The notes: a model not told the origin generated them from the letters alone. Shown: positions 4,531 through 42,866, numbered from the stretch's first letter. The stretch: 64,000 nt of DNA from an uncultured Acidobacteriota bacterium (GCA_913043225.1 CAJWLU010000015.1:10193-74192), one strand, 5' to 3'. Made by a program: numbers and translations.

Positions 4531-5496
4531 ATGTCGTCCTTAGCGGGCCAGTCCTGGCGTGCCCGACTCCGCACCGAAGAGTTCCTGTTTCTGCTGCTCT
4601 TTATCCCTTCGAGCATCGTTACCGTCTGGGCGAACTATGACCTGTATGCGGGTGGGGTCGATTCTCGCCGTATCCAGGGGGGGCTCCTGCGCCTGGCGAT
4701 CGTAGTGCTGCTCGCCATGATTGTCCCGACACTCGACCGCTGGCGGCATCGGCTGCCGTACGGGACCGGCCGCAGCACGGTCGATTTCTTTCGTACGTTT
4801 CTGCCCTTTGTGTTCTGTGTGGCCGTGTACACCAACCTCCATGACACGGTGCGATGGATCAACCCGAACGATATCCATGGGCAGTTGATGCAACTTGAGC
4901 AGTGGCTGTTCGGGTTCCAGCCGGTCGTGTGGGCGGAGCAGTTCATTACCCCGGCGCGCACCGAGTTCTTCAGCTTCTTCTACACGAATTTCTTCGCGCT
5001 GACGGTGGCGGTGTCGAGCGTGCTCTGGGCGCTAGGCCGGCGGCAGCAGTCCAGAGAGACGCTGCTGGGGATCGTGGTCTGCTTCTATTCGGGCTACATC
5101 CTCTATCTCATCTTTCCGGCTGCTCCGCCACGTCTCTACTACGAGGCGATGGGTATGTTCTCGGTCGACCTGGGCGGTGGCGCCATCGCCAGTTTCCAGA
5201 ACGCCCTGATCGCGTTGATGCCCAACGAGGCGTCGCGCGCCGCGTTCCCGAGTCTTCACACCGCCGTCAGTTTCGTGGTGCTCGGCTACGCCTGGAAGTT
5301 CTGCCGTTGGTTGTTCCCGATCCTGCTGGTGTTTGTGCTCGGCTTGCTGGTTTCGACGGTGTACCTCCGTCACCACTACGTTGTGGACCTAATTGCGGGT
5401 GCGATGATGATTCCCTGGGTGTTCTGGGTGACCCCGCGCATTGACCGGTGGTGGAACCGCTCGGCTAGACCCTACGACCTCGGCGAGCGTCCCTAG
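4531..5496 (+). CDS. PAP2-superfamily membrane protein (Aur1/IPC-synthase-like, PAP2_3)
   Basis: PAAPPR, AAFPSLHTA and STVYLRHHYVVDLIAG motifs; several TM helices; start reassigned to ATG 4531. Confidence 0.8.
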   Translation: MSSLAGQSWRARLRTEEFLFLLLFIPSSIVTVWANYDLYAGGVDSRRIQGGLLRLAIVVLLAMIVPTLDRWRHRLPYGTGRSTVDFFRTFLPFVFCVAVYTNLHDTVRWINPNDIHGQLMQLEQWLFGFQPVVWAEQFITPARTEFFSFFYTNFFALTVAVSSVLWALGRRQQSRETLLGIVVCFYSGYILYLIFPAAPPRLYYEAMGMFSVDLGGGAIASFQNALIALMPNEASRAAFPSLHTAVSFVVLGYAWKFCRWLFPILLVFVLGLLVSTVYLRHHYVVDLIAGAMMIPWVFWVTPRIDRWWNRSARPYDLGERP

Positions 5497-38880: not shown

Positions 38881-39001
38881 TGGCTTCGCCGATCCACGGT
38901 CAGAAGTTATGGACCGCCGACTAACGGGCATAGGTCTTTGAGTCCTCTGCGGCCAATGCCTGGGCGGAGATGCTATTCCTGAAGCCCAAAGCCTGAAGCC
39001 G

Positions 39002-39601
39002 ATGTCCACAGTACTCCGCGTCTACACCGACTTCGTTTGACCCTGGTGCTACCTCAGTACCGGGCGTATTGAGCGACTGCGGCGGGACCTCGGGCTCGAA
39101 GTGGAGTGGGTGTACTTTCCACTACATCCCGAGACGCCTGAGGAAGGACGTTCGCTCGAATCGCTGTTCGCGGGGCGAGGCTATGACCTCGAAGTGATGC
39201 ACGAGCGCATGGCGACGCTCATGGCAGAGGAAGAGCTGCCCTACGGTCGGCGCACGCATACCTACAACAGCCGCCTGGCTCAGGAGCTGGCGGCTTGGGC
39301 GGACGGGGAGCCTGGTGGCGACGCGTTGCGCGGAGCGCTGTATCGAGCCTACTTTGTTGACGGGCGGAACCTGTCCGACATTGATGTGCTGGTGTCTCTG
39401 GCCGAAGCGGTTGGTCTGCTCGGAAGCCAAGTGCGTCAGATACTGGAGCGCCGGACCATGCGCGAGCTCGTTGACAAGCACTGGTCAACTTCGACCCGCG
39501 CTGGCATCACCGGTGTGCCGACGTTCGAAGTCGGCGGCTACCGCGCCGTAGGAGCTCAACAAGAGGAAGTGTTGCGTCACTTGGCTTCGATCGCTCCATA
39601 G
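39002..39601 (+). CDS. DsbA/FrnE-family thiol-disulfide oxidoreductase, predicted selenoprotein (Sec at TGA 39038-39040)
   Basis: ATG 39002 reads MSTVLRVYTDFV-TGA-PWCYL in frame with the 39101 ORF (FPLHP, NSRLAQ, GITGVPTF, GAQ). Confidence 0.88.
39053..39073 (+). promoter_or_regulatory. Bacterial SECIS-like hairpin
   Basis: CTCAGTAC-CGGGC-GTATTGAG: 8-bp stem with one G-U pair; G-containing loop begins 20 nt after the TGA. Confidence 0.7.
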
Positions 39602-40827
39602 ACCAACGTTTTCCACTCTTCGCGGAAGCCGCCACCTCGAGACGGTGAGACGGCAGCCATGATCACGGTCACGATGCCGTGCTCCGGGTCGATCGAGAAT
39701 CTGGTGCCGGACGAGCCGTCCCACCAGTACTCGCCCGCTCCGACCGGCCAGCCGTAGGCGCCGGCGTCCAGAATCACGTTGAAGCCGAGTCCCCAGCCCG
39801 ACCCGGCCATGTAGCCGCCGCCGATCGGCATGGCGCGGGCGGGAACGTGGTTCTCGAGCATTAAGGCTACCGTGTTCTCTGAGAGTAGGCGCGTGCCAGC
39901 CAGCGAGCCATGGTTGAGGAACATCTGCGAGAACCGGAGGTAGTCGGTCACCGACGATAGAAGACCAACGCCCCCCTCGATGAGAGACGGACGCTCGGTG
40001 AAGGGCACCTGCTCGATCGCGTACGGACGTAACTCGCCGGTCTCGCGATCGGGGCGGTAGACCGCGGCCAGTCTGTTCGCGCGTTCCCCGTCCGCCCAGA
40101 ACACGGTGTCGGTCATTCCCAGCGGTTCGAAGATGCGCTGCTGGAGAAATTCATCGAAGGGTTGTCCCGACCACACCTCGACGAGGCGTCCCAGTATCGT
40201 GGTGGAGACGCCATAGCGGAATCGGGTGCCCGGGTCTTCGAACAGTGGCATCGCGGCGACGTTGTTCACCATCGCCTCTAGGTCGATCGAACGCAGCCGC
40301 ACGTCGTGGGCCCGGTAGATCGGGCTGCTCCGACTGCCGATGCCGGACGTGTGGGTCAGGAGGTGGCGCACGGTGATATCACTTTGACGAGGCCTGGTCT
40401 GTTCGAGGTTCGGCGAGGAGGCGTCGAGGAACACCCGCTGTTCGGCAAACTGGGGGAGGTAGTCCGAGATGGGGTCGTCCAGCTGGAATGTGCCGTCCTC
40501 CCACAGAAGCATTACCGCCGTACTCGTGATGGAACGGGTCATCGAGTACAGCCGGAAGATTGCGTCCTCGGGCATTGGATCGCCAACTTGCAGGTCGCGC
40601 CGGCCCAGCGCTTCGAAGTAGACCAACTTACCGTGGCGGGCCACCGCGGCCACGACCCCCGCGACGTCGCCCGCGTCGATGTGTTCCTGGAGCGCGGCGG
40701 TGGCTGCCTGAAGTCCTGTCGAGGACATGCCGACCGACTCCGGAGCCGCGCGATCCAGATCCTGCGCGGCGGCCGGTGTCCACCAAACGAGCGCGCTGAC
40801 GAGCCATGCCATCTTTCGAAGCTGCAT
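39577..40827 (-). CDS. Exported serine hydrolase, beta-lactamase class C/esterase family
   Basis: FRLYSMTR, LLTHTSG, PGTRFRYG, IFEPLGMTDT; signal peptide. Confidence 0.9.
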   Translation of the reverse strand: MQLRKMAWLVSALVWWTPAAAQDLDRAAPESVGMSSTGLQAATAALQEHIDAGDVAGVVAAVARHGKLVYFEALGRRDLQVGDPMPEDAIFRLYSMTRSITSTAVMLLWEDGTFQLDDPISDYLPQFAEQRVFLDASSPNLEQTRPRQSDITVRHLLTHTSGIGSRSSPIYRAHDVRLRSIDLEAMVNNVAAMPLFEDPGTRFRYGVSTTILGRLVEVWSGQPFDEFLQQRIFEPLGMTDTVFWADGERANRLAAVYRPDRETGELRPYAIEQVPFTERPSLIEGGVGLLSSVTDYLRFSQMFLNHGSLAGTRLLSENTVALMLENHVPARAMPIGGGYMAGSGWGLGFNVILDAGAYGWPVGAGEYWWDGSSGTRFSIDPEHGIVTVIMAAVSPSRGGGFREEWKTLVYGAIEAK

Positions 40828-42119: not shown

Positions 42120-42206
42120 AGGATGTCGCCGGGAACATCAGGCCGAGGGCCGGCGTCCTATAGACCATCAATTGCTCCGGCCCACGCAAGGGAGAGAGAA
42201 CTCAGC

Positions 42207-42866
42207 ATGTCACTCAGAATCAATAGCACCGCACCAGACTTCATCGCCGAGACCACCCAGGGCACCATCAACTTCCATGAGTGGATCGGAGACGGCTGGG
42301 CCATCCTCTGTTCGCACCCCAAGGATTTCACCCCGGTGTGCACCACCGAACTGGGCACGATGGCCGGCTTGAACGACGAGTTCACCAAGCGCAACTGCAA
42401 GATCCTCGGCATCAGCGTCGACCCGGTCACCAATCACGAGAAGTGGTCGAAGGACATCGAGGCGTCGCAGGGGCACGCGGTGACCTATCCGCTGGTGGGC
42501 GACCCAACCCTGGCGATCGTCAAGCAGTACGACATGCTGCCCGCTGATGCCGGCGTCACGAGCGAAGGGCGCACCCCTGCCGACAACGCTACCTCCAGGT
42601 CTGTCTTCGTCATCGGACCAGACAAGAAAATCAAGGCGACCATCACCTACCCGATGAGCACCGGGCGGAACTTCGAGGAGATTCTTCGCCTTCTCGACTC
42701 CTGCCAGCTCACCGCGCAGAAGAAGGTAGCCACTCCCGCCAACTGGAAGCAGGGCGAGGATGTGATCATCCTACCGGCCGTTTCGGATGAGGCCGCCAAA
42801 GAGGCCTACCCGGATGGCTGGAAGTCGCCGCTGCCGTACATCCGCATCGTTCCGCAGCCGAAGTAG
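42207..42866 (+). CDS. 1-Cys peroxiredoxin (Prx6 subfamily)
   Basis: SHPKDFTPVCTTE, YPMSTGRNF, VATPANW. Confidence 0.95.
   Translation: MSLRINSTAPDFIAETTQGTINFHEWIGDGWAILCSHPKDFTPVCTTELGTMAGLNDEFTKRNCKILGISVDPVTNHEKWSKDIEASQGHAVTYPLVGDPTLAIVKQYDMLPADAGVTSEGRTPADNATSRSVFVIGPDKKIKATITYPMSTGRNFEEILRLLDSCQLTAQKKVATPANWKQGEDVIILPAVSDEAAKEAYPDGWKSPLPYIRIVPQPK

Follow-up and report, generated by a model that had tools for sequence, protein, structure and literature searches.

Does the TGA that interrupts an oxidoreductase gene in an uncultured Acidobacteriota bacterium terminate translation, or does it specify selenocysteine (Sec)? The question is raised by positions 39002-39601 of the 64-kb stretch of DNA analyzed here (64,000 nucleotides, hereafter the window), where a frame related to the FrnE and DsbA proteins carries a TGA at the place of the first cysteine of a CPWC active-site motif. 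We hold it to be very probable that this region is a functional FrnE/DsbA-like gene in which that first Cys is replaced by Sec, inserted through the UGA codon. The argument proceeds from the reading frame and the encoded protein to the behaviour of the TGA and of the adjacent hairpin among relatives, and then to the genes of Sec decoding, before competing readings are weighed.

The ATG at 39002-39004 is the first ATG, GTG or TTG past the in-frame stop at 38939-38941. The frame that it opens runs through MSTVLRVYTDFV to the TGA at 39038-39040, continues as PWCYLSTGRIE and closes at the TAG of 39599-39601; it contains this single in-frame TGA, and reading through it yields the active-site motif D-F-V-U-P-W-C (U13-P-W-C16). 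The first-pass annotation had described an in-frame ATG at 39002 opening past the TGA to PWCYLSTGRIE and an ORF track that starts the gene at 39101; the frame was re-read and found to be exact, and the standard ORF list indeed gives a start at GTG 39101 and a product of 166 aa. The elements of the locus are as follows.

39002-39601, plus strand: proposed full-length gene for the FrnE/DsbA-like selenoprotein; 199 codons, Sec13 counted, closed by the stop TAG at 39599-39601.
39038-39040, plus strand: TGA in frame, proposed to encode Sec13 at the head of the U-P-W-C redox motif; of 80 related loci, 78 share the TGA and two have TGC; directly before helix 14-30 of the structural model.
39047-39049, plus strand: TGC, Cys16, partner (resolving) cysteine of the UxxC motif, sole Cys of the protein and invariant in alignment A3.
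39048-39050, plus strand: 5' side of a lower stem of 3 bp predicted for the family by RNAalifold; the window forms the G-C and U-G pairs only, the middle pair being C/A.
39053-39073, plus strand: predicted SECIS upper stem-loop, with 5' arm CTCAGTAC at 39053-39060, loop CGGGC at 39061-39065 and 3' arm GTATTGAG at 39066-39073.
39075-39077, plus strand: 3' side of the predicted lower stem (RNAalifold).
39101-39103, plus strand: GTG start of the truncated 166-aa product given by standard ORF calling, which is without the active site and covers Pfam profile positions 34-188 only.

The genetic code of the window is standard, and recoding at this locus would be site-specific, since TGA is the stop codon of 24 of the 55 window ORFs (TAG serves 29 and TAA two). 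A global reassignment of TGA is ruled out by the same count. Among the 44 TGAs of the window that lie between open, high-GC3 stretches, a redox-motif context is encountered at 39038 only.

The protein obtained by read-through matches the Pfam DSBA profile (PF01323) from position 2 to 188 of 191 with 100.2 bits (cutoff 25.6), against positions 34-188 and 63.8 bits for the 166-aa ORF. It follows from this extension of the match that the first strand and the active-site helix, absent from the called product, are encoded in the 33 codons that precede its start. Standard gene calling would halt at the TGA and restart at GTG 39101, leaving a catalytically meaningless annotation. The suspicion voiced from the start that the gene is mis-called is well founded, as the 166-aa ORF lacks the catalytic centre and the closest database entries suffer from the same defect. 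In the protein search, the database proteins nearest to the window product are five distinct entries (P0001-P0005; identity 80-93% within the segment covered), every one of them an N-terminally truncated call of 163-182 aa, and a further close fragment, P0017, is truncated at 150 aa. Five more distant entries (P0097, P0100, P0112, P0118 and P0119, 61-63% identity) start past the active site, four of them at '(M/V)RIE[KR]L...' and P0118 at 'MRWVFFPLHP'; P0100 continues beyond the usual C-terminus of the family and reaches 239 aa. Full-length relatives carrying Cys share about 55-62% identity with the window protein.

An AlphaFold model built on a 39-sequence alignment (A3) reached a pLDDT of 94.7 and a pTM of 0.91. 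In this model residue 13 stands at the N-terminal end of helix 14-30, directly behind strand 4-9, and the N-terminus of a helix that follows a strand is the canonical place of the nucleophilic residue in the CxxC motif of thioredoxin folds. The first strand of the model starts at residue 4, which would leave a signal peptide no space, and no hydrophobic N-terminal segment is seen, a reading taken from the sequence and the model. When the model was compared with the PDB using Foldseek, the FrnE entries of Deinococcus radiodurans came first (5co3, 5cnw, 5xwh and others; TM 0.90-0.91, 0.91 for 5co3; rmsd 2.0-2.1 Å; 31-32% identity), and periplasmic DsbA structures gave TM values of about 0.55-0.65. 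The nearest solved structures by sequence are again D. radiodurans FrnE (5cnw/5cp1, E = 1.6e-20) and also Streptomyces SCO1869. The window protein is thus closer to FrnE than to periplasmic DsbA in both sequence and structure. An NCBIfam assignment to another thioredoxin-like (seleno)protein family was rejected, at 29.7 bits for a cutoff of 190.

With the periplasmic DsbA of the E. coli type, a disulfide oxidase, the window protein has in common a thioredoxin fold with a helical insertion and a CxxC-type motif, but the two are distant at the TM values given above, and the CPWC-type motif of the window differs from the CPHC of E. coli-type DsbA. The resemblance to D. radiodurans FrnE extends to the same fold, an active site of C-P-W-C type opening helix 1 and the apparent lack of an N-terminal export extension. 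The window protein departs from it by Sec in place of the first Cys, by its length (199 aa, against 260 residues in the PDB chain) and by the absence of a C-terminal CxxxxC tail, the chain ending at residue 199 with Cys16 as its only Cys. According to the available part of one study, FrnE of D. radiodurans (DR_0659) is a cytoplasmic disulfide reductase/isomerase of the DsbA family, FrnE subfamily, regenerated by its C-terminal CxxxxC tail (PMC8945050). The same part of that source finds the tail in many FrnE members and not in all, does not treat it as defining and notes a differing recycling route for tail-less homologues (PMC8945050). Because the window protein is devoid of this tail, its recycling route must differ from that of the Deinococcus enzyme.

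The fate of the TGA among relatives was followed in 80 related loci from genome_contigs, among the matches listed (at least 600 stretches), the best of which is 63% identical. The codon aligned with 39038-39040 is TGA in 78 of these loci (75 recognized by pattern, and L025, L054 and L069 read separately) and TGC in two; the loci were found with search patterns taken from Sec-type sequences, and the counts describe this set rather than a Sec:Cys ratio for the whole family. By record title, the loci include Alphaproteobacteria (32), Betaproteobacteria (22), Acidobacteriota (nine), Gammaproteobacteria (seven) and other Pseudomonadota (three), together with single loci from Vulcanimicrobiota, SAR324 and Rokuibacteriota. 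The peptide that precedes the TGA is conserved as ..L[EQ][VI]F[ST]D[YF][VI].

Alignment of homologues at the TGA column, which the first-pass annotation had recommended as a check for alternation between Cys and TGA, reveals this alternation: the TGA faces TGC in loci L033 and L066 and Cys in database proteins P0006, P0007, P0053 and P0094. The assertion that the TGA stands for the first Cys of CPWC is therefore upheld. TGC or TGT in relatives had been named as the finding that would speak against recoding; relatives instead carry TGA with the two exceptions just mentioned, and this includes the syntenic loci described below. In the two TGC forms (L033:10037 and L066:10028) the hairpin sequence has been lost, their peptides reading YLASARVARL and YLGSARVARL where the TGA forms read YLST[GV]RIE[KR]L, and unrelated GC-rich sequence occupies the place of the hairpin.

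Two loci, L001 (Acidobacteria bacterium SZUA-1123) and L004, preserve the gene order of the window to either side of the gene; their neighbours are 44-86% identical to those of the window, and each possesses the TGA and the hairpin. The order common to the three is desaturase, histidine kinase, response regulator, hypothetical protein, selenoprotein gene, convergent serine hydrolase, PQQ-like protein, peroxiredoxin and YajQ. Since the TGA is kept in this pair despite the divergence of the neighbours, the codon has outlasted substantial sequence change. As to the neighbours themselves, the 3' end of the selenoprotein gene overlaps by 25 nt (39577-39601) that of the convergent gene of the serine-hydrolase/beta-lactamase family (39577-40827, minus strand), whose best NCBIfam match, methyl acetate hydrolase AcmB-like, is below cutoff and which is also present in L001 and L004. 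The peroxiredoxin gene, 2.5 kb downstream at 42123-42863, is of the PRK13189 type (E = 3.7e-52) and matches the PrxU model less strongly; it appears full length, has no in-frame TGA and is conserved in both syntenic loci.

Immediately 3' of the TGA, an 8-bp hairpin with a CGGGC loop starting 20 nt after the codon had been reported, and it was recovered as such at 39053-39073, one of its eight pairs being G-U. Its folding energy is -8.2 kcal/mol (z = -0.89); 46 of 200 shuffles fold as well, so that by thermodynamics alone it is no better than chance, and the minimum free energy fold of 39038-39080 is another, mutually exclusive hairpin (-14.8 kcal/mol, z = -1.75). The case for the predicted SECIS beyond chance is comparative, not thermodynamic.

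The hairpin is present in 78 of 78 TGA-bearing relatives (75 counted, and L025, L054 and L069 read individually). In an ungapped alignment (A2) of 76 sequences, the window and 75 loci, of which 75 are distinct and served for the pair counts, 91.8% of stem cells are paired, against 18-51% when the 3' partner is slid. Seven of the eight are each retained by 92% or more of the sequences, and the outermost is C-G in only 32 of 75; pair 19-33 is broken (A/C) in six sequences. Compensatory replacements were observed from A-U to U-A in L039, L057 and L074, and from U-A to C-G in L048, L058 and L079, the latter at the cost of an Ile-to-Val change. Such double-sided changes amount to six cells at two of the eight pairs, a figure reached by none of 500 shuffles. 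RNAalifold recovered the same stem and added the 3-bp lower stem, pairing columns 11-13 with 38-40 (pairs 11-40, 12-39 and 13-38). Pair 12-39 is C-G in 30 sequences, U-A in 23, U-G in eight and unpaired in 15, the window with its C/A mismatch being among the last; it covaries through the synonymous third base of Cys16.

Codon choice bears the same imprint. The synonymous codon entropy of conserved degenerate codons is 0.56 bits for the nine codons of residues 14-25 and 1.24 bits for 91 codons elsewhere, and two six-fold degenerate residues use one codon throughout, with Leu18 as CTC and Arg22 as CGT in 76 of 76 sequences. Codons of the hairpin are rare in the 55 window ORFs, where AGT makes up 9% of Ser codons, CGT 15% of Arg codons and ATT 17% of Ile codons. 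The bSECIS model, as far as the available text of a 2026 review describes it, allows a loop of 3-9 nt, a stem of 4-16 bp, a G in the first two loop positions, a spacing of 16-37 nt and an MFE of at most -7.5 kcal/mol (PMC13188914). With a 5-nt loop, an 8-bp stem, G at loop position 2, a spacing of 20 nt and -8.2 kcal/mol, the window hairpin lies within all constraints of this E. coli fdhF-type, or consensus, model as that text presents it (PMC13188914). The G at loop position 2 is invariant (76 of 76), and the base that follows is G or U, G in the window. The hairpin is matched by no Rfam family, and its binding by SelB is a prediction: the whole 64-kb window gave no Rfam match at gathering thresholds, and 38950-39200 searched at E <= 10 gave no SECIS family, only chance matches to SNORD23 and GHRLOS.

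Another hairpin, pairing columns 7-13 with 19-25, was considered as the SECIS and rejected. It pairs in 98.9% of cells but displays no double changes, and the very A>T substitution for which compensation occurs in the SECIS stem disrupts it. A mere 10 nt separates its loop, which is devoid of G, from the UGA, and the codons that compose it are those of Trp, Cys, Ser and Thr; it may nonetheless compete with the SECIS. In the window and the other Gly21 variants (loop CGGGC), an alternative hairpin of 11 bp at 39040-39067, ACCCUGGUGCU / AGUACCGGG.CGU, is the minimum free energy structure at -14.8 kcal/mol, and it is weakened in the Val21 variants (CGUGC). This structure may compete with SECIS formation or modulate it.

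Sec insertion requires dedicated genes, which were sought in the window and around its relatives. No tRNA was detected by ARAGORN in the 64-kb window, NCBIfam found no selA, selB or selD among its 55 ORFs, a span of 64 kb that says little either way, and tblastn with SelA and SelB of L062 and L055 gave no match to the window. Among relatives, ARAGORN identified tRNA-Sec (anticodon TCA) in the 10-kb flanks of six of the 80 loci (L007, L041, L050, L055, L062 and L080), and in L050, L055 and L062 about 540-570 nt separate its end from the TGA downstream. Given one selC per genome, six flanks out of 80 represent a linkage far above chance. Both selA (TIGR00474, E down to 1e-175) and selB (TIGR00475) occur in the flanks of five of the 80 loci, next to the tRNA-Sec in L055, L062, L041 and L080 and further in L028. 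The claim of the first-pass annotation that the UGA encodes Sec and is closely followed by a SECIS is supported by the TGA of the 78 relatives, by a hairpin conforming to the bSECIS model and by the selA-selB-tRNA-Sec genes beside the gene in relatives.

The arrangement is most explicit in two metagenome-assembled genomes of Burkholderiales type (L055:6100-10591 and L062:6283-10597), where selA, selB and tRNA-Sec are followed, after about 0.5 kb, by the TGA-containing frnE-like gene; a short contig (L050:68-1297) holds the pair of tRNA-Sec and frnE-like gene. Two ORFs upstream of selA in L062, an ORF at 4908-5462 combines the N-terminus of a MerC-like transporter with a C-terminus matching 'GDCCVxC domain-containing (seleno)protein' (NF041374, 103 bits), and the ORF between them (L062:5534-6094) has no family match. 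By this profile match, the GDCCVxC-type ORF is a second predicted selenium-associated family near the sel genes of L062.

A quick maximum-likelihood tree of 81 sequences, unrooted, groups the window with L001 and L004 (SH-aLRT 97) among other Acidobacteriota. Class labels are clustered on it, with nine changes against 30.8 in shuffles, an indication that inheritance within classes was mostly vertical. L033 and L066, the two Cys forms, pair as sisters (SH-aLRT 95) inside a group of betaproteobacterial Sec forms, which suggests one replacement of Sec by Cys followed by release of the RNA constraint, the direction being read from nesting in an unrooted tree. No other terminal branch comes near that of the window copy in length (0.64; median 0.14), and among the 76 TGA-bearing sequences this copy diverges most, with a mean identity of 56.8% against a median of 66.3%. 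It departs from the consensus at nine of the 79 columns that are at least 90% conserved (F8Y, G78E, H110R, A144V, V147I, D160H, V182A, P187Q and Y188E). Several of these departures are common to P0001-P0003 and hence are features of the lineage rather than decay of a single copy. The gene is 62% identical to its syntenic relatives, and nine of the 12 matched neighbours in L001 stand at 72-84%, the other three being below 70%; between L001 and L004 the selenoprotein gene is 66% identical. These figures suggest accelerated evolution of the gene in the lineage of the window. The long branch could reflect relaxed constraint, which constitutes the main caveat of the analysis.

Carried to its end, this caveat becomes the reading in which the lineage inherited a Sec-type gene and has lost, or is losing, Sec decoding, so that the UGA terminates translation and the locus is a young pseudogene or yields an inactive fragment. 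The long branch, the conserved columns departed from, the lower identity of the gene relative to most of its L001 neighbours and the absence of sel genes within the 64-kb window all point that way. Yet the frame of 199 codons is intact, the hairpin is kept base for base despite its rare codons, the Pfam score is far over the cutoff and the structure model is confident. Moreover, P0001-P0005 keep open frames and share several derived residues, which indicates a lineage under selection, and the modest identity between L001 and L004 shows that the gene is fast-evolving in the whole clade. We judge such a relic to be improbable.

Far less room is left for the view that an ordinary Cys-type FrnE gene recently acquired the TGA by nonsense mutation, or owes it to an error of sequencing or assembly, a view which has the bare presence of an in-frame TGA in its favour and nothing more. 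The same TGA recurs in 78 of 80 independent assemblies from several phyla, the two syntenic relatives included, a persistence that rules out such an accident, and a SECIS-type hairpin goes with the TGA and is missing from the TGC-bearing L033 and L066; the probability of a mutation or error of this kind is negligible. The identity of the inserted residue is a different matter, as sequence comparison does not distinguish it. The UGA might be recoded to Cys by a SelB-type factor with a non-canonical tRNA, or be read through by near-cognate Trp or Cys insertion aided by the hairpin, and SelB-dependent recoding to Cys has been proposed for some bacteria. Relatives nonetheless carry beside the gene a canonical tRNA-Sec (TCA) and selA, the maker of Sec-tRNA, and the family is catalogued as a selenoprotein in the available parts of two publications (PMC1088965; PMC13188914). 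Recoding to a residue other than Sec is in our estimation very unlikely, and Sec insertion at the UGA of a functional gene is the reading retained below.

The insertion of Sec by SelB and a hairpin is established knowledge in bacteria. At the present locus, the stem-loop of 39053-39073 would bind SelB-GTP-Sec-tRNA(Sec) through its apical part with the UGA in the A site, and Sec would be delivered to the ribosome at the UGA in competition with release factor 2. The resulting protein of 199 residues is a putative cytoplasmic thiol-disulfide oxidoreductase belonging to the FrnE subgroup of the DsbA family. By extension of the FrnE biochemistry reported in the part of PMC8945050 at hand, Sec13 would attack substrate disulfides and Cys16 would resolve the intermediate as a selenenylsulfide. 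The protein would therewith cycle between selenol/thiol and selenenylsulfide states, and it may act as a disulfide reductase or isomerase on cytoplasmic substrates in the manner of Deinococcus FrnE with its Cys. Recycling would be performed by an external reductant, the protein having no second Cys pair to do so. In the available portions of the literature cited here, no member of the DsbA-like family has selenium demonstrated by experiment.

The selenoprotein family was held to be known already when the locus was first annotated, and the available parts of the literature agree. A DsbA-like protein (COG2761, UxxC) was described in 2005 as a new selenoprotein family with nine sequences from the Sargasso Sea metagenome (PMC1088965) and was counted in sequenced genomes in 2006 (PMC1794560). 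Table 1 of the 2026 review, as far as it is accessible, lists it as 'DsbA-like protein form 1' (PF01323, UxxC), and AACY01178397 and NIP15863.1 are example sequences of the family given in the published material at hand (PMC13188914 for the table). The window gene resembles form 1, as these partial sources define it, in its PF01323 domain, in a UxxC motif with Sec first, in a SECIS located just downstream inside the coding sequence and in the wide distribution of Cys homologues; there is no essential difference between them and the window gene is a further member. This assignment is based on the domain, the COG-type similarity to FrnE and the motif, and is to that extent a probable one. Scientifically the locus brings nothing new in kind and would not surprise a specialist; its annotation needs fixing.

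Gene callers routinely truncate members of the DsbA-like selenoprotein family, and the Sec form as a full-length protein is largely absent from the predicted-protein collection searched, where the five closest entries are truncated. The comparative set assembled here, with its 78 TGA and two nested Cys forms, compensatory changes, suppressed synonymous variation and selA-selB-selC linkage, could provide a clean family-specific SECIS model. The FrnE-type selenoprotein might even be an anchor client on which maintenance of the Sec trait depends in soil and marine lineages that are largely aerobic, and it may move together with the machinery as a unit. This idea is drawn from the selA-selB-tRNA-Sec-frnE(U) order of Burkholderiales-type genomes (L055 and L062, and the pair in L050) and from the near-complete nucleotide conservation of the SECIS in at least four phyla; we regard it as speculative and give it a small chance of being correct. 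If it were true, the long branch of the window might mark a functional shift in one acidobacterial lineage. As for the organism itself, an acidobacterium-like bacterium to judge from the synteny with L001, the corrected gene marks it as a probable user of Sec.
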